Shown here: positions 1 through 29,374 of the stretch, in pieces
Layout of the letters: each line of letters starts with the position of its first letter
How positions within the stretch are numbered: position 1 is the first letter of the stretch
Virus genome (UHGV): UHGV-0084588
Reading direction: 5' to 3' (one strand)
Source of the DNA: a virus
DNA: 64,000 nt
Translations under genes and position numbers: made by a program
The notes under the pieces: model-generated
Seen by the model: the letters and a program-made list of their open reading frames with translations, nothing else
Told to the model about the DNA's origin: nothing
Database searches by the model: none

Positions 1-848
1 GCTCTGACCCCCAGCGAGGGGGTGGGGATCGGTGAGCGGTATTTTCCGGAAAAACCGAAATTCGTACCCGGGGTATTTCACCAGGGTAAAATCCCCACCT
101 GGGGGATCGGGTAGGGGTGTACCCGACCGGGGGTAAAACCCCATTCCCCTTTTTCGAACGTTAAAACCCTATGGTATGTTCGGAGGATTTGCGTGGGGTG
201 ATTTACAAATCCGACCACGAAGATTTTTCGGAGTTCAGGAGTTTACTGCTCACAGCTCAAACACGATTTCTGTCTGCGAAGATTCAGCAGAGCTCGAAGC
301 CCCCTGACCGGGTGTTGGTTTGGGGGTTGTTTTTTCGAGTGCATGGAATTTATTTCACCGTGTACTGGGAAAAACAAAACGTTCAGCCTAACACTGGAGT
401 TTGTTTTACTATGGGGTTTGAAAATCGATTTGCGAATCGAATTTACCCCGAGGGATTTTTGGAATCCCCAGAGTTCAGGTGCTCGGTACCGTTCCCCGAC
501 TTACGAGTGTTGGGGAGCCCGCGCTATCAGTGACGCGTGGACCACATGAGAAAATCCGAGTGAACCGTGGCAGCCTCTGGGAGCGACGTTGGCGAAAGGT
601 CCGTAGAACTTACCTGCGGGCAGCCGACGGTGGGATACGCTCCCAGAGGTGCGGCCAGAATGCGAATTACGACGTTGCGTCGAATGACCCTGCTCCAGGT
701 AGCGCTGGCAGTGTGATGTCCTCTAGCTTGACGGCTCGCAAAGACGAGAGGGGTGCGTACTCCCGTTGAGAAACGCCGGTACGCAGCTGAATTATTTTTT
801 ACGGAGTTTCCTGTTGGTGTGACACAAATCACGGCAGGAGATTTTAAT
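1..848. other. GC-rich non-coding region with G/C-tract repeats and a 12-bp inverted repeat (574-585 / 638-649); no convincing CDS
   Basis: Only short ORFs without RBS; repeated units such as gtacccggggta...aaatcccc and gtacccgaccgggggtaaaacccc in 1-170; perfect inverted repeat cctctgggagcg / cgctcccagagg. Confidence 0.4.
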
Positions 849-1166
849 ATGACTTTGAATAATACGTCCAACTTGTATCTGGTGCATTCCTCAGACGGCA
901 AGCGAACCATTCTGGTTCATGCTGAATCGCATCGCGAGGCTGGCGAGCTTTGGGATGGCGACGAACAAGTTACGTTGCAAGTCGATCGACTTCTGGGCGG
1001 TACTTACCAGTTCACAGGCTCTCCGGTAATCTTGGCTGAAGTTGATGGGGCTGTAGCCACTGCTGGTGTTATCAGCACGCAGTTTTTCGTGTATGTCCCT
1101 GACGGGAAAACGCCCACAGCAGACGGCTTATCGCTGCTACAGCAGGCCGATGTAGGAATTCTGTGA
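849..1166 (+). CDS. hypothetical protein (105 aa)
   Basis: ATG at 849 preceded by aggag RBS; stop overlaps start of next gene (TGATG). Confidence 0.5.
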   Translation: MTLNNTSNLYLVHSSDGKRTILVHAESHREAGELWDGDEQVTLQVDRLLGGTYQFTGSPVILAEVDGAVATAGVISTQFFVYVPDGKTPTADGLSLLQQADVGIL

Positions 1167-1666
1167 TGACCACGATTGTTTTTGACGGAAAGACGTTAGC
1201 TTGTGATGGCCAAGTCACCGTGGAAGACCGAAGCGCTGCCACGCAATACCGTAAGATTCACACGCCGCCTGAGGGTACGACGTGGAAGCTTTTGGGTGAA
1301 GACGTGAAAGCGATTGGTTTGGCAGGTGATGTCGCCGCATTGCAATCCGTGCGTCAAGAACTCACGCTTGAACGTTTCGGCGGCATCGAACGGGGTGGGG
1401 TTCGTTTTGAAACGACGTATCCCGAACAGATTGAATTTATCGTACTTGCTGTTTTGACAGACGGGCGTGTTATCGACGCCTCGAAGTGCAAAGACAACAA
1501 ATACGCCAGCTACGTGTTTGTAGAACCGCCGTATGCGATAGGCTCAGGTGCTCACTATGCCCTGGGTGCATTAGGCGCTGGCGTTGACGCCCCCACTGCG
1601 GTGGAAGTGGCGAAACGTTACGACCTGTACAGCGGTGGTCAAACGCAAACACTTAAGCTGTTTTGA
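1166..1666 (+). CDS. HslV-like / proteasome beta-type Ntn-hydrolase peptidase
   Basis: N-terminus M-TTIV...DGQ(V)T matches HslV TTIVSV...GDGQAT; Lys near position 30; AIGSGA motif matches HslV AIGSGG; about 166 aa, similar to HslV length. Confidence 0.7.
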   Translation: MTTIVFDGKTLACDGQVTVEDRSAATQYRKIHTPPEGTTWKLLGEDVKAIGLAGDVAALQSVRQELTLERFGGIERGGVRFETTYPEQIEFIVLAVLTDGRVIDASKCKDNKYASYVFVEPPYAIGSGAHYALGALGAGVDAPTAVEVAKRYDLYSGGQTQTLKLF

Positions 1667-1675
1667 TGTATAAAG

Positions 1676-1748
1676 ACCATTGAAGTTAGAGGAATTAACA
1701 CCCGACTAATAATCGGTTATTTCGCAGGTTCGAATCCTGTCATTGGTC
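1676..1748 (+). tRNA. tRNA-like element (73 nt), anticodon loop cu-AAU-aa, identity uncertain
   Basis: Canonical T-arm gcagg-TTCGAAT-cctgt, 7-bp acceptor stem with one U-U mismatch, D-stem gtta/taac with GG in loop; atypical A8 and weak anticodon stem. Confidence 0.45.
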
Positions 1749-2384
1749 TCCCGAATTAGAGCAGTCGTACAGTGGGTAGATTTTCCCGTCAGCCTTCAAC
1801 TGAGATACGTCTGCTCTGATAACTTCTGCTCTTGCTCACGGGTAGAAAGCTCCTTAAAAACGTGTAAACACCTACCGATTAAGTTCGGACTTACGTTTAG
1901 GGCCGTAGGGTCCTGGTAGCACGACTACCGAAACGGTTGTACGGTGGGAGGATATCCTCCCACCTGCATCCATCAAGAATTTAATTATTGGGTTTTCCCC
2001 TAAGTGTAACGTGAATACCCTGTAATGTGAATTGAGAGTTACGTGTTAACTCGACGGTACCGGTCGTTGATTTTTTAGTAAACCTTCATCGTCCCATGTC
2101 TGCTGCATTTGGCTGGTACTGAACTTTGTCGCTAAGCCTGGTGAGGTGGCTACACACCGAGGCTGGGGCTCGACACCCGTTAGCGGCACCCTTTTTGCGT
2201 TATTGTCAGTATTCTGAAGCTGTGTTCAGTGACAATAGCGTTTTTTATTCGCGTTGGCGTTTGTACCATTGCTGCCACTGCCTGCTGCGCCTCAACAAAC
2301 GGTCAACGCGTCCCACTAACCCACACGTCGGGGTATAGCGACGTACAACAGAACGAGTAGTAGTAACAGAACGAGGTAACAGAA
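1749..2384 (+). other. structured non-coding region with multiple hairpins
   Basis: No ORF with RBS; perfect hairpin ggtgggagg-atat-cctcccacc (1945-1966); tattgtcag...ctgacaata stem (2201-2238). Confidence 0.35.
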
Positions 2385-3032
2385 ATGCTTACAGTAAAAC
2401 GCATCATTAACGGCGACCGTGTCATCACTGTTCACGAACGTGTACGTTTAGGTGACAAAATGTCCCGTGTTTACAAAGAAGCACTTAAAATCGTTAACGG
2501 CGAAGATAATGAATTGTGTTTTGATAACGCGATTGATTTGCCGAGAAAACCGAAACAGGTAGGTTATACAGCTTTAACTGATATGTCCGTAGAGGAACAG
2601 AAAAGCACCTTGGCCAACCTGCATCCGTTTTTGCACAATGTGTCAGATTGGACCGTTGTCATTGGAGGTCGACCTATTCCAGAGGATGTACCACGTGTGG
2701 TGATCGTTAACCCACGTATGCCGTCCTTCGAAGAAAAGAATTCGCCAGTCGACGAAATTTATATTCCTGGCAATAATTTCTATTGCCGGTTTTGTGGCTT
2801 TACACAGCGTGAAATGACGTATGTGATGCCAGCTCAAGAAATCCAATTAGTCCGCGAGCTGATTAACGAAGATGGTGATACCTTCTATCAGAATCAGCTC
2901 CGTAGCGGTAAGCACTCGGTTGACGAGGCGATTGGCGTTTTACTCGTCGACGATGCTTACGAATTTTTCTATCCAGGGGATGTGGTTTACATCATGAACA
3001 ATGAAGGTAAAACCATTGATACCCTGCGATAA
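2385..3032 (+). CDS. hypothetical protein (215 aa)
   Basis: ATG with RBS cgaggtaacagaa; followed by terminator-like hairpins. Confidence 0.6.
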   Translation: MLTVKRIINGDRVITVHERVRLGDKMSRVYKEALKIVNGEDNELCFDNAIDLPRKPKQVGYTALTDMSVEEQKSTLANLHPFLHNVSDWTVVIGGRPIPEDVPRVVIVNPRMPSFEEKNSPVDEIYIPGNNFYCRFCGFTQREMTYVMPAQEIQLVRELINEDGDTFYQNQLRSGKHSVDEAIGVLLVDDAYEFFYPGDVVYIMNNEGKTIDTLR

Positions 3033-3135
3033 CCAGTTTAGCTCCGCCGAAAGCTAAAAGCCCACCCTTCGAGAACGCCCATTCTCATGCCCTGAAGGGT
3101 TTTAATCCTGTAGTTTCATTGCCGATGACAGGGAA

Positions 3136-9713: not shown

Positions 9714-12026
9714 GTGGAATACATTTCTCCTTTTCGTTTAACGGTAGATGAATACCATCGTGATATTGATGTCAATGATGCCTACCGCGAACAGGTCGCG
9801 TTATACATTCATAACGTGACAGCACAAAAATACCCTTTAGAATTTTGTCGTCAGGAAGTCGATGCTCTTATTGCTCCTGGCGGTGAGTTAGCAACCGAAT
9901 CACCCGTGTGTAAGATGTGGGTGCGAAATCAGAAAACGGGCGATCGTGAGGAAAAATACACTACCGTCGATAAGCTATTTAAAACCGTCATTGACAAACA
10001 GATTATCTCCGCACCTTCGTTAACTTTTTATTTGCCCGAACACGTCAAACGTTCTAAGTTGTCTGAATTCACAGCAGCTAACGTAGCGAAACGTGCTGCG
10101 GTAAAAAAGGAAATGTTTGCAGCAGCAGCAGCGGGCAATGAAGTATTAAAGATCAACAAAAAGAACGAACAGAATGCGGTCAAGACGCTGAACAACGGTA
10201 TGTCTGGTGCATTCTCCTCTCCGTACACGATTATTTTCAACCAGTCTTCACACTCCGTACTGACGTCCACTTGCCGTACTGCAACTTCGTTCGGCAATGC
10301 TGGAAACGAACGTTTATTAGGAGGTAATCGTCATTACGATACCCCGTCACGCATTATTGATCATTTCTTATCTATCGGTACTTTAACCGATTGGAATAGC
10401 TTTAAGAAATGTATGGAGACGTATGAGCTTCATTACCCGTCGGTAGAAGAGGTGATGGAAGTTATTCACTATTCTGCTGATTTCTACTTTAAGAACGAAG
10501 AGGGGATGGAGTTCGTTGAGCATTACGTTAGTAATGTATCACCGTTGACGCGTGCCGCGTTTGTTTACATGGGTGATTTTTTCCACCTGGCTAAATACAA
10601 CGATAAGTTCATGCGCGACTTTATTGGTGCATTAATTACCCCTGAAGCGCGAGTTGATACTGAGGGCTGGACTGATACGGACTGGGTTGCTGCTGAGAAG
10701 ACCATCGATGGTGATATGCAGATTATTATCTCACAGTTCCGTACCGACGTAGTACCGATGGGTAAAGCGTTCAGTGACGTTAAGAAACTTGACGGTAATA
10801 AAAAACCCTTGCCGTGGGATCAGCAGGATGGCTATAAAGAACTAATTCGTTCCGCGCTGTTCTTACAGAAAACGATCGGTAAATACGCACTACTGATTCG
10901 TAATATTCTTACCACGAAAAACTTACCAATCAACATTGCTCGAATGCCGGATGTGGTTCGTCGTGTAGGCGTAGTATCTGATACTGACTCTACAATGATG
11001 ACTGCGCAATGGTGGGCAATCTGGTACACCGGTAAACATTACGGTGAGATAGCGACCCGCGTTTCCAATGCGATGATCTATATTGCGACACAGCACTTAC
11101 GGCATTTGATGGCGAGTATGTCAGCAAACATCGGCGTGGCGAAGGAGCGCTTGTTCCTGTATGCAATGAAGAACGAATTTAAGTTTGATTCGTTTGCATT
11201 GACTACCAAAGCAAAACATTACTTCTCACTGATTACCGGTCAGGAAGGCCAGCTGAAAAAAGATCCCGAGCTGGAAGTAAAAGGTGTGTCTTTACGCACA
11301 TCTAACATTCCTCCGATTATCATGAAGGAATTTAAGAACACTATCAAAGGGCTATGTGAAGTTGTTGCCCGTGGTGATCAGATCGAAATCATTCCGTTAC
11401 TGGAAAAGGTTGCCCAAATCGAACACACGATTATGGATTCTATTCGTTCTGGAAATCCAGGGTATTTGAAAACGACGAACATCAAGGAACGTAGCGCTTA
11501 TAACGAGAAGGATGAGAAGAACTACCATTACCATCGAATGTATAATGCTATCTTTGGTCCGAAGTTTGGTTATTTGGAAGAACCGCCGTACGATGCTGTG
11601 AAACTTCCGGTAACACTGGAAAACAAAACGAAGATTAAAGAATGGATTGACGGTATCGAAGATCCGATCATCAAGAACGGCGCATCGGCGTGGTTTGAGG
11701 AGACAAACTTCCGTAAATATAAAACATTGATTCTACCAGAACACTTGGTGGAAAACTACGGTATCCCTAAAGAGCTTATCGATATCGCAGATATCCGTCG
11801 TACTGCTTTCTCTACGGTTGAACCGTACTATCACATTCTCGAATGCTTAGGTGTGTTCATGATGGATAAAAACAGGATGAGGTTGTTGTCAGATTTCTAC
11901 GATAAAACCGAGGAGAAAGACGAACTGTATAAGGAATTAGCGGAAGTACAATACGTTAAGAAATCGGAGAGGGCAGGGGATGACGAAGAAGACGATGACG
12001 AAGAAGAGGTTTTTGACGACGAATGA
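9714..12026 (+). CDS. putative family-B DNA polymerase, C-terminal (polymerase) fragment, with acidic C-terminal tail
   Basis: Motif B-like KTLNNGMSGAF, motif C VVSDTDS, KKRY-like KAKHY; no exonuclease motifs or motif A in this ORF; GTG start with agagg RBS; B-to-C spacing is unusually long. Confidence 0.45.
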   Translation: MEYISPFRLTVDEYHRDIDVNDAYREQVALYIHNVTAQKYPLEFCRQEVDALIAPGGELATESPVCKMWVRNQKTGDREEKYTTVDKLFKTVIDKQIISAPSLTFYLPEHVKRSKLSEFTAANVAKRAAVKKEMFAAAAAGNEVLKINKKNEQNAVKTLNNGMSGAFSSPYTIIFNQSSHSVLTSTCRTATSFGNAGNERLLGGNRHYDTPSRIIDHFLSIGTLTDWNSFKKCMETYELHYPSVEEVMEVIHYSADFYFKNEEGMEFVEHYVSNVSPLTRAAFVYMGDFFHLAKYNDKFMRDFIGALITPEARVDTEGWTDTDWVAAEKTIDGDMQIIISQFRTDVVPMGKAFSDVKKLDGNKKPLPWDQQDGYKELIRSALFLQKTIGKYALLIRNILTTKNLPINIARMPDVVRRVGVVSDTDSTMMTAQWWAIWYTGKHYGEIATRVSNAMIYIATQHLRHLMASMSANIGVAKERLFLYAMKNEFKFDSFALTTKAKHYFSLITGQEGQLKKDPELEVKGVSLRTSNIPPIIMKEFKNTIKGLCEVVARGDQIEIIPLLEKVAQIEHTIMDSIRSGNPGYLKTTNIKERSAYNEKDEKNYHYHRMYNAIFGPKFGYLEEPPYDAVKLPVTLENKTKIKEWIDGIEDPIIKNGASAWFEETNFRKYKTLILPEHLVENYGIPKELIDIADIRRTAFSTVEPYYHILECLGVFMMDKNRMRLLSDFYDKTEEKDELYKELAEVQYVKKSERAGDDEEDDDEEEVFDDE

Positions 12027-27108: not shown

Positions 27109-27136
27109 TACTGATTCAACCTAAAGGAGTATTAAA

Positions 27137-29374
27137 ATGAAAACGCCAGTAGAGCTAATGAGCAGTGTGGCTGACCGTGAGATTAATATCACCGAAGTAT
27201 CAGGTGCAAGGGCATCGATGGTAGGCAACCATATGAAGTCTGCGGTCCCTATCGACAATCCTGAACCATCGCCACATTTTACAGGGGCAGATATAAACTA
27301 CCACGATTTTCTGTTCAATGACGTTGTAGAAGATCCCGGTAGCATCTGCCACTATATGACCAAAGACGGTCGTCAGCGCCGTGCGACATTTACACGTTAT
27401 GGTCGTCGTGGGGATTCTAAAGCGTTGGAACATGCTATCTTCTTCCGCCGTGCAGAAATGAAGGGCGGTAAAACCATGATAGATGTGTTGGAGATTAACT
27501 TCTATACTAACCACGACAACATCTTCTCATCTGAGAAACGTGAGTCGATGAAACTGCGTAGTATTTTACGTGGTGAAACCGATCAGTTGGAAAAGGATGA
27601 AATTCTTACAACAATGTCGTGTATGGTGGAAGGTGAGTACGCTGATAGCGTCGTGCTACCAACCGTTACGATTTCGCATCCTGATATTATCGAGGATTCT
27701 TACACCATCTCTGAGTACGCCGCCCAAAAGCTCCACGGCTACGGTTTGAAAATCGTTGAAAAGACGCTACGCGAAGACGAGTTTTTACTGGATACTTACG
27801 GTTATATCGATCCGAATGGTAATCGTGTCCCACGCTATTTCCCGGATGTGGGGGAAGCTATTCGTGATGATGGGCTGGTCATTGCATCACGTCGTTTCGA
27901 TGAGCTTTACGGTGCGATTGATGCGTCGCTTGGGGAAACCCAACACGTCTCCCCGTTCTTTGATAGTTGCGAATATGTGGATGCCGATCCCGTCCATTAT
28001 AAAGCACGCCTTGCGGGCGACAAAGAACTGATGGAGAGTAGCGGTACACGCATCGTCGATATCCAGGTGTGGCGTGATGAAACGTCTTGCGCGAATGGTA
28101 CCAACAATATTTCTTGTACCGAAGAGAACAAACGAGAACTGGATAAATACGCATTAGCATTGAAAGACTATTACAATGCCATTGTACGTTTCTATTTCTC
28201 GATGTCTCGTGACAAAAATATTATCTGGTCACCGAAGGCGTGTGTGCTGTTGGAAAAAGCCTTCGCTTCCGAAACGTACGAAGTCTATCACGAGTTTCGT
28301 GAAGAGATTCGCGTAGTGATTGATGAAGCGATTCGTCGTGGTGAATATGGTAAAGAAAATGTCAGTCAGCAAATTCTTTCTAAGTTGACCGCACCAGTAC
28401 AGCGTGGACTCAGCGATCCCATCAACACGTATACCATTCGTATTGCTGTTCGTTATCCGATCCCGGTAACGGTGTCGTCTAAGATTACTGACCGTTCGGG
28501 TACGAAAGGGATTGTTGGACGCGTGTTACCCGTTGAACAGATGCCGATTAACGAATTCGGTGAACGTGTTCACGTTTTACGTTCGATGAACGCTGTAATT
28601 CGTCGCTCGACTTATGCAGCACTATTCCACATGTATTGGTCAGCTGCGTCTGAGCAGTTGAAGATGCGTCTTAAACCAATGCTGGACGAAGGCCGTATCA
28701 GTGAATGTTGGGAAATCCTGATGGATTATCTGTCACGTTATAATCCTGAATGGGCCAACACACTACAGGTAACACATCCTACGGAGGATTTACAACGCGA
28801 ACTCTTTAAAGAGATTTACGATTTTACAATACGTATTTACTTGCCACATGAACTTGACGACACGCCAGTCGATATCAGTGAACGGTTGGGTGAATTTAAA
28901 CCACGTAAATCAAAACTTCTACTTACTAACTTCGACGGTAAGCAGGAATGGACAAAAGATGAATTTTACGTAGGTGGTGTGGAAACATTGCGTCTGGATA
29001 AAACAGGTCGTGAGTTTTCCAGTATCTCGTCAATGTATCTGAATTATCTGGGTACGATAGACGCATCTAACCAAGGTCGTGGCTCGTATCCGATAAACTA
29101 TAAAACGCTAAAATGGGCTGGTCCTTCGGAAGAACGACTGTTAGCGGGTTATGGTCCAGGTAACTACGAAGAAGTTCACGATAGGGCAAATAACCCTGCG
29201 GTACATCGTGAGATTTTAGTAGGGCTTTATCGATCTCAAACCCCATCTAATCCGGGTCCATTAGTAGACCGGAATAAATTCCCGTTAGGGGATTCGCAGA
29301 TTGACAGGATGATGAAAAACATCCACAACTGTGAAGGGTTTGAATTGGTGAAAATGAAAAGGGGCGATGAATAA
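27137..29374 (+). CDS. RNA polymerase beta-like subunit, C-terminal fragment
   Basis: ARASMVGNHMKSAVP matches ANRALMGANMQRQAVP; IIEDSYTISE matches YNFEDSILVSE; GTRIVDIQVWRDE matches GTVIDVQVFTRDG; DRSGTKGIVGRVLPVEQMP...SMN matches GRHGNKGVISKINPIEDMP...SRMN. Confidence 0.75.
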   Translation: MKTPVELMSSVADREINITEVSGARASMVGNHMKSAVPIDNPEPSPHFTGADINYHDFLFNDVVEDPGSICHYMTKDGRQRRATFTRYGRRGDSKALEHAIFFRRAEMKGGKTMIDVLEINFYTNHDNIFSSEKRESMKLRSILRGETDQLEKDEILTTMSCMVEGEYADSVVLPTVTISHPDIIEDSYTISEYAAQKLHGYGLKIVEKTLREDEFLLDTYGYIDPNGNRVPRYFPDVGEAIRDDGLVIASRRFDELYGAIDASLGETQHVSPFFDSCEYVDADPVHYKARLAGDKELMESSGTRIVDIQVWRDETSCANGTNNISCTEENKRELDKYALALKDYYNAIVRFYFSMSRDKNIIWSPKACVLLEKAFASETYEVYHEFREEIRVVIDEAIRRGEYGKENVSQQILSKLTAPVQRGLSDPINTYTIRIAVRYPIPVTVSSKITDRSGTKGIVGRVLPVEQMPINEFGERVHVLRSMNAVIRRSTYAALFHMYWSAASEQLKMRLKPMLDEGRISECWEILMDYLSRYNPEWANTLQVTHPTEDLQRELFKEIYDFTIRIYLPHELDDTPVDISERLGEFKPRKSKLLLTNFDGKQEWTKDEFYVGGVETLRLDKTGREFSSISSMYLNYLGTIDASNQGRGSYPINYKTLKWAGPSEERLLAGYGPGNYEEVHDRANNPAVHREILVGLYRSQTPSNPGPLVDRNKFPLGDSQIDRMMKNIHNCEGFELVKMKRGDE

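Follow-up and report, generated by a model that had tools for sequence, protein, structure and literature searches.

A PPH-family proteasome homologue of a jumbo-phage lineage apparently without an HslU-like unfoldase

What could a phage gain from a proteasome-like peptidase when no gene for a matching unfoldase accompanies it? The question is raised by the virus genome UHGV-0084588, of which a 64,000-nucleotide stretch (the window) was analyzed, and in particular by its gene for a 166-residue protein, referred to here as PPH1 (Table 1), which an earlier note on this DNA had described as an HslV-like proteasomal peptidase without a cognate HslU. That observation is correct but largely known. 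PPH1 is a member of the PPH family and not HslV proper, with the membership judged from the published description of the family (representative WP_042125023.1); the family has already been named, and no new kind of system is involved. In functional terms, PPH1 is probably an ATPase-independent, self-assembling peptidase with an N-terminal Thr nucleophile that acts outside the virion.

Assignment of PPH1 to the PPH family

Searches that relied on a single sequence missed the link between PPH1 and HslV, so that a family profile was needed. The Pfam models, including PF00227 (Proteasome), did not match PPH1 even at E<=10, a phmmer search of the PDB with the PPH1 sequence returned only noise, and phmmer with E. 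coli HslV as the query did not find PPH1. The NCBIfam HslV models TIGR03692 and NF003964 gave it 12.4 to 12.5 bits, against cut-offs of 157.75 and 137, respectively. PPH1 falls into PHROG 1040, “peptidase HslV family” (E=9e-36), and directly matches a phage family of ∼140-residue proteins (E=1e-8 to 5e-4), which is recovered with E values down to 1e-53 when a profile is used. A word-indexed search with a small alignment collected more than 2,700 PPH relatives, and an exhaustive profile search yielded 11,480 representatives of 50%-identity clusters at E<=1e-3, nearly all of them 135 to 150 residues long. The PPH genes examined come from 70 phage records and 51 IMG/VR loci, where their neighbors are phage structural and packaging genes. 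Compared with solved structures, a profile of 57 PPH sequences matched HslV at E=3.7e-12 and proteasome beta subunits at E of ∼1e-7, which places PPH1 in the proteasome/HslV superfamily, as the earlier note had proposed.

The predicted structure points the same way. A Foldseek search with the AlphaFold2 (AF2) model of PPH1 matched proteasome beta subunits and HslV with a probability of 1.0, with HslV as the best structural match at an overall identity of ∼20%. By this model, PPH1 is predicted to have the alpha-beta-beta-alpha fold of the N-terminal nucleophile (Ntn) hydrolases, with the nucleophile at the mature N terminus. The modeled helices comprise residues 56-67, 129-137, and 142-152, and the modeled strands include residues 40-42, 45-54, and 91-97. 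Only one helix (residues 56-67) is predicted between the strands at 45-54 and 91-97, and residues 68-90 are non-helical, whereas HslV has two helices there. The beta core and the helices H1, H3, and H4 are thus kept and helix H2 is not predicted, as in PPH; in the profile alignment, HslV carries ∼17 extra residues at the H2 site relative to the core PPH sequence.

The PPH family was described by Fuchs et al. in 2021 (PMC8665760) as proteins of ∼140 residues, encoded by Caudovirales and prophages, that have the residues Thr1, Asp17, Lys33, and Gly47 and lack both a propeptide and the second helix (the latter stated for PPH/RPC). PPH1 shares with this family of compact group-I proteasome homologues the absence of a propeptide, the presence of H1 without H2, the catalytic residues, and the lack of a dedicated ATPase. 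It departs from the description only in its length, 166 residues against a family median of 142, and is otherwise colinear in the alignment; the excess is due to two insertions (residues 33-45 and ∼68-88) that are common to other jumbo-phage copies. The “HslV length” ascribed to the protein in the earlier note is therefore a superficial likeness, the core of the family being ∼140 residues long.

PPH1 is not regarded as HslV because the curated HslV and proteasome models failed and because no H2 helix is predicted. The bacterial HslV (ClpQ) shares with PPH1 the TTIV N terminus and the equivalents of Asp17, Lys33, G45-x-x-G48, and GSG but differs from it in having the H2 helix and an hslU partner and in lacking an Asp at the position of the PPH1 Asp153. 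The beta subunits of the 20S proteasome, BPH, and Anbu have the fold and the logic of the catalytic triad in common with PPH1 but consist of 180 to 230 residues, contain helices H1 to H4 (and H5), and form established rings; the proteasome beta subunits also carry a propeptide. What stands of the HslV-like label is a place in the proteasome/HslV Ntn superfamily with an intact catalytic set, whereas the identification with HslV itself does not.

The catalytic set is complete, and all the motifs listed in the earlier note were recovered in the alignment. The N-terminal MTTIV is the same as in E. coli HslV, the GDGQ-type block reads A-C-D-G-Q at residues 12-16 and is aligned with A-G-D-G-Q of HslV, the Lys expected near position 30 is Lys30, aligned with Lys33 of HslV, and the GSG motif aligns with that of HslV. 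The conservation counts (Table 1) refer to a 258-member PPH family alignment, with denominators that vary by column. The catalytic Thr is not lost in the homologues, 248 of the 250 aligned members retaining it; the position of Gly51 is occupied by Gly in 223 members and by Ala in 27, and that of Gly54 by Gly in 257 of 257. The open reading frame (ORF) runs on the + strand from the ATG at 1166 to the TGA at 1664-1666, and the protein starts with MTTIVFDGKTLACDGQVT. The alternative start, a GTG at 1163, lies one codon before the ATG and is unlikely to be used because 243 of the 258 relatives begin with Met, Val, or Leu followed by Thr, without a propeptide.

The closest annotated homologues of PPH1 are the gp1-type proteins of phiKZ-related jumbo phages, which align over the full length with 30 to 39% identity. 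Orthologues are found in the SPN3US-like Seoulvirus phages, in the Erwinia phages Caitlin, Asesino, ChrisDB, Machina, and others, and in the Pseudomonas phage EL (gp15), and several of them, including SPN3US gp1 and EL gp15, are already annotated as “peptidase HslV family.” SPN3US gp1 (SPN3US_0001/YP_009153295), EL gp15 (YP_418048), and gp1 of Asesino, Caitlin, and ChrisDB (PHROG 1040) have the same insertions as PPH1. The members of the SPN3US gp1 group also resemble PPH1 in their position at the conventional genome start and in the tRNA gene that comes after; SPN3US_0001 itself occupies positions 1186-1677 and is followed by a tRNA gene, as in the window. The second insertion is the most variable segment of PPH1 among its close relatives (the copy in locus L005 included). 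Against six relatives with 88 to 97% nucleotide identity, the dN/dS ratio of the gene is 0.03 to 0.15, and the few amino acid changes are grouped in one loop; PPH1 is under strong purifying selection.

HslU-like ATPases and the second paralogue, PPH2

The absence of an HslU-like AAA+ gene from the window, noted earlier, was upheld by searches of the window and of the complete genome of a congener. In the window, phmmer with E. coli HslU and a hidden Markov model (HMM) of phage and bacterial HslU gave nothing better than E=0.6, and the only ORF with a Walker A motif is at 27125-29371. A six-frame search of the complete congener NZ_CP173450.1 (221.9 kb) with the HslU HMM yielded a best match of E=0.11, that is, none. 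The syntenic 85-106 kb region of the three IMG/VR contigs of the same lineage, comprising 20 kb around the gene for the second paralogue (see below), contains no HslU-like gene. With a phage HslU-like protein as the query, no protein from a 222,841-bp E. coli contig or from the other close contigs appeared among the best 120 of 332 matches, which is no more than suggestive, and the three same-lineage contigs were not among the matches listed in a scan of IMG/VR with an HslU alignment, which is a weak negative. By these searches, the window lineage apparently carries no HslU-like unfoldase. The orphan status of PPH1 thus holds past the window, but it is nothing unusual for PPH, where it is the rule.

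In many related jumbo phages, a gene for an HslU-like AAA+ protein of ∼580 residues (PF07724/PF00004) is present ∼100 kb downstream of the gp1-type gene; examples are Caitlin gp127, where the surrounding genes are small, variable, and without known function, the “hslU” gene of MET_P1_082_240, and a gene of pSal-SNUABM-04. Some relatives in the SPN3US gp1 group have, ∼100 kb away, a gene that the window lineage lacks. Among the 60 listed records with a gp1-type gene, a full-length HslU-like gene accompanies it in 13 and is lacking in 47, the latter being SPN3US and most other Seoulvirus phages, Asesino, Stratton, phiEaH2, the EL-like phages, and a dozen phages of 40 to 50 kb. The opposite combination, an HslU-like ATPase without a detectable gp1-type gene, occurs in the RAY, Kwan/Wellington, and CR5 groups, and the sampled Pseudomonas matches of the ATPase query came from LUZ7-like and PA5oct-like phages, not from EL. 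In ∼20 non-redundant contigs of smaller phages, no AAA+ family was found among the commonest neighbor families of PPH, which are terminase, head-tail, and methylase families. Judged from this gene content, the gp1-type gene is distributed independently of the phage HslU-like ATPase.

Salmonella phage SPLA1a and Escherichia phage Lh1B keep the gp1-type gene and have only a 68- to 73-residue N-terminal stub of the HslU-like gene. The stubs (115654-115872 in SPLA1a and 106002-106205 in Lh1B) are 92% identical to the 586-residue HslU-like gene that is intact in the close relatives MET_P1_082_240, SPLA3, and 1252, and a single genus thus seems to have lost the ATPase recently in some of its members. 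The HslU-like AAA+ gene of pSal-SNUABM-04 (MT710307.1, 106144-107871) is annotated as “putative DnaA protein,” apparently a mistake in the public annotation; according to the paper on that phage, an HslU subunit was not detected, a statement that the gene contradicts. The RAY homologue of the HslU-like ATPase, gp116, has been reported to localize to the phage nucleus.

The window lineage has a second, divergent proteasome-like paralogue, PPH2, which is encoded outside the window (Table 1). It consists of 162 residues, starts with MTTVLV, keeps the Asp, the Lys, and the GSG motif, and matches the family HMM at E=2.8e-6; in an hhalign comparison with the PPH profile, it reached a probability of 97% (E=6e-11), and no solved structure was matched by the sequence profile of PPH2. 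Its gene is ∼94 kb downstream of that for PPH1, in a variable region beside Dam methylase, GNAT, and XRE genes. In Machinavirus and the CR5 group, a PPH2-type homologue and the HslU-like protein are encoded on the same strand, the former 2 to 2.6 kb upstream, as in pEa_SNUABM_43, where genes 125 and 130 are labeled “HslV-like” (PPH2) and “HslU-like,” respectively. By gene neighborhood, the phage HslU-like ATPase is linked to PPH2 and not to the gp1-type PPH1. Compared with this module, which is found in the same group of phages, the window lineage keeps PPH2 at the syntenic variable region and lacks the ATPase, and PPH1 is the other paralogue, of gp1 type, located ∼100 kb off.

The presence of two paralogues raises the alternative that PPH1 and PPH2 co-assemble into a two-subunit viral mini-proteasome, PPH2 being the ancestral partner of the phage HslU-like ATPase. 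Both proteins keep MTT, Asp, Lys, and GSG, the two are related by the profile comparison given above, PPH2 is present in all three same-lineage IMG/VR contigs and in the congener, and the Machinavirus phages hold both paralogues together with an HslU-like gene. Many phages, however, have one paralogue only (the gp1 type in SPN3US-like and EL-like phages and PPH2 in the CR5 group), and the two genes are 94 kb apart. Such co-assembly is considered unlikely.

Candidate functions of PPH1

For PPH1 to act as a self-assembling N-terminal-Thr peptidase, its nucleophile has to become the first residue of the mature protein. Methionine aminopeptidase prefers a small second residue such as Thr, and since there is no propeptide, the removal of Met1 by the host enzyme would by itself expose the Thr. 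PPH1 would then assemble by itself and work inside the infected cell as a peptidase without a dedicated ATPase. Its targets would be peptides, or host and phage proteins that are loosely folded, and their cleavage would serve turnover or the removal of host factors.

Several points weigh against this reading. No functional work on PPH or on SPN3US gp1 was found in the literature searched; no PPH has been biochemically characterized there, and the presumed peptidase activity is deduced solely from the conserved residues. In the absence of HslU, HslV shows very weak peptidase activity, and an ATPase-free PPH might likewise need an activator. The absence of HslU beyond the 64 kb of the window rests on the congener, at 80 to 96% nucleotide identity, and on partial loci of near-identical contigs. 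Finally, proteasome homologues can carry out other chemistry, as shown by connectase, which is a ligase (PMC8665760).

In line with the last point, PPH1 might be a non-proteolytic Ntn enzyme, either a connectase-like ligase or transpeptidase or an amidase whose substrate is a small molecule or a modified protein. New proteasome homologues may indeed have new functions and quaternary structures, as pointed out by Fuchs et al. (PMC8665760), but more than 99% of the PPH members have Thr as the nucleophile and not Ser or Cys, and such an activity is very unlikely.

Another suggestion of the earlier note, a part in virion maturation, finds little favor in the data. Smaller phages often carry PPH near terminase, portal, or head-tail genes, which counts in favor of a prohead or virion maturation protease. 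Against such a role of PPH1, the congener NZ_CP173450.1 has a separate gene for an S80 prohead (morphogenetic) serine protease, the cleavages of head proteins in SPN3US are accounted for by the essential gp245 (PMC7411985), and SPN3US_0001 is absent from the virion and prohead mass spectrometry tables of the same study. The predicted fold of PPH1 also differs from the herpesvirus-like Ser/His fold of the prohead proteases (S77/S78/S80). A morphogenetic role for PPH1 is highly improbable.

A more elaborate possibility is that PPH1 docks to the HslU of the host, taking the place of HslV on the HslU hexamer and forming a hybrid ATP-dependent protease with a phage-directed specificity. HslUV is present in each of the hosts (E. 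coli, Salmonella, and Enterobacter), PPH1 shares TTIV, DGQ, the Lys, and GSG with E. coli HslV, which is also its best structural match, and the lineage apparently lacks its own unfoldase, HslU being generally required for the full activity of HslV. On the other side, mutations in the H2 helix of HslV (e.g., L88A, PDB 4g4e) affect its activation by HslU, and the H2 region is deleted in the core PPH and replaced in PPH1 by a Gly-rich loop modeled with low confidence. The overall identity to HslV of only ∼20%, the failure of a phmmer search with E. coli HslV to find PPH1, and the presence of PPH in many small phages of very diverse hosts also speak against docking, which is distinctly unlikely.

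A rather unlikely proposal is that the lineage has kept two divergent, apparently active subunits without an unfoldase, either as a hetero-oligomeric ATPase-independent mini-proteasome or with one of them capturing the host HslU for the degradation of host proteins, e.g., defense factors. If true, this would be the first functional assignment for PPH, whose cluster representatives number more than 11,000. The jumbo-phage subgroup makes this large family accessible to experiment, with both genetics and proteomics available for SPN3US, and the observed gene pattern, with gp1-type genes that occur with or without an ATPase, an ATPase tied to PPH2, and natural truncations of the ATPase, can guide the choice of the pairings to be tested.

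Phage lineage and surroundings of the gene

A megablast search of the phage collection with the first 6 kb of the window gave no match. Elsewhere, this phiKZ-related jumbo phage is common, with contigs of 220 to 223 kb in many metagenome assemblies; the three IMG/VR contigs carry copies of PPH1 that are 97 to 99% identical, and near-identical contigs are also found in assemblies of Salmonella (a Salmonella Chester contig) and E. coli. The congener NZ_CP173450.1 (221,873 bp) has been deposited as a circular “plasmid” of E. coli strain 98232, a urine isolate, and a second congener, NZ_CP134650.1 (222,441 bp), as a circular “plasmid” of Enterobacter ludwigii; the congeners have ∼80% nucleotide identity to the window phage. 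These deposits suggest a carrier or episomal state or a phage that was sequenced along with its host.

Table 1. Positions of PPH1, its predicted functional residues, neighboring features, and PPH2 (positions are those of the window unless another record is named; CDS, coding sequence; pLDDT, the per-residue confidence of the AF2 model)
Feature	Position	Strand	Basis or remark
PPH1 CDS (PPH-family proteasome-like peptidase, orthologue of SPN3US gp1/EL gp15)	1166..1666	+	166 residues
AGGA, Shine-Dalgarno-like	1154..1157	+	8 nucleotides before ATG 1166, read from sequence
Thr2 codon, predicted N-terminal nucleophile after Met1 removal	1169..1171	+	Thr in 248/250 aligned members; aligns with HslV Thr1
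Asp14 codon (HslV/proteasome Asp17)	1205..1207	+	Asp in 252/253; HMM-guided alignment with E. coli HslV
Lys30 codon (HslV Lys33)	1253..1255	+	Lys in 256/257; aligned
Insertion 1, residues 33-45, jumbo-phage subgroup only, predicted beta hairpin	1262..1300	+	Alignments; AF2 strands 40-42, 45-54
Gly51-Leu-Ala-Gly54, aligned with HslV G45-F-A-G48, oxyanion-hole region	1316..1327	+	HMM-guided alignment
Insertion 2, residues ∼68-88, at HslV helix H2 site, Gly-rich, predicted non-helical	1367..1429	+	pLDDT <50 at residues 72-84
Gly126-Ser127-Gly128 motif	1541..1549	+	Gly 259/259; Ser 249 and Thr 9; Gly 259/259
Asp153 codon, family-invariant	1622..1624	+	Asp in 257/259; no Asp at this alignment column in HslV
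105-residue ORF, stop overlapping the PPH1 start (TGATG)	849..1166	+	Swappable cassette, not a conserved partner
tRNA-Ile directly after PPH1	1675..1751	+	ARAGORN, anticodon AAT; Rfam tRNA 38 bits
Conserved ∼80-nucleotide element upstream of PPH1	724-805, core hairpin ∼735-790	+	Unannotated in nearly all listed records
PPH2, outside the window	NZ_CP173450.1 58451-58939	-	Six-frame search of the congener
PPH2, outside the window	L148/L149/L150 (IMG/VR loci) 10001-10486		Found in all three same-lineage IMG/VR contigs

The 105-residue ORF that overlaps the start of PPH1 is kept in the window and in locus L005 and is 94% conserved in one E. coli contig. In close relatives (CP173450 and loci L008 and L009), two other, unrelated ORFs stand in its place, with the flanks conserved and the breakpoint exactly at its ATG. 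It has no match in PHROG or NCBIfam, and all the downstream neighbors of PPH1 belong to PHROGs without known function. The order of the PPH gene and a tRNA gene is common to the window, SPN3US (tRNA at 1775-1847), and the congener (CP173450 tRNA-Ile at 150822-150896). The tRNA at the equivalent place in SPN3US is a tRNA-Trp; the window tRNA instead gives an 89% match to SPN3US 2997-3061, beside a feature labeled “tRNA-OTHER.”

Upstream of PPH1, window positions 1-851 and the corresponding NZ_CP173450.1 151405-153492 contain no annotated or convincing CDS, yet they are 86 to 96% conserved among relatives. A recurrent promoter-like motif, TTATTTTTTAC, showed no enrichment. The upstream region includes the ∼80-nucleotide element, which has 77 to 85% nucleotide identity to sequences in 44 jumbo-phage records of other genera, where the proteins are only ∼35% identical; its carriers include SPN3US (1064-1145), Proteus phage 7, Kwan, Wellington, pEa_SNUABM_11 and pEa_SNUABM_6, and Huxley. 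The element forms two hairpins, after which come a U-run and a TTTAC that does not vary, and 5 of its 18 predicted pairs show compensatory changes, with none broken. It had no Rfam or tRNA match and is also found in phages without a PPH gene. Possible identities are a conserved small RNA, a terminator, and an element of a 5' leader. Many of the related genome records begin at or just before the gp1-type PPH gene.

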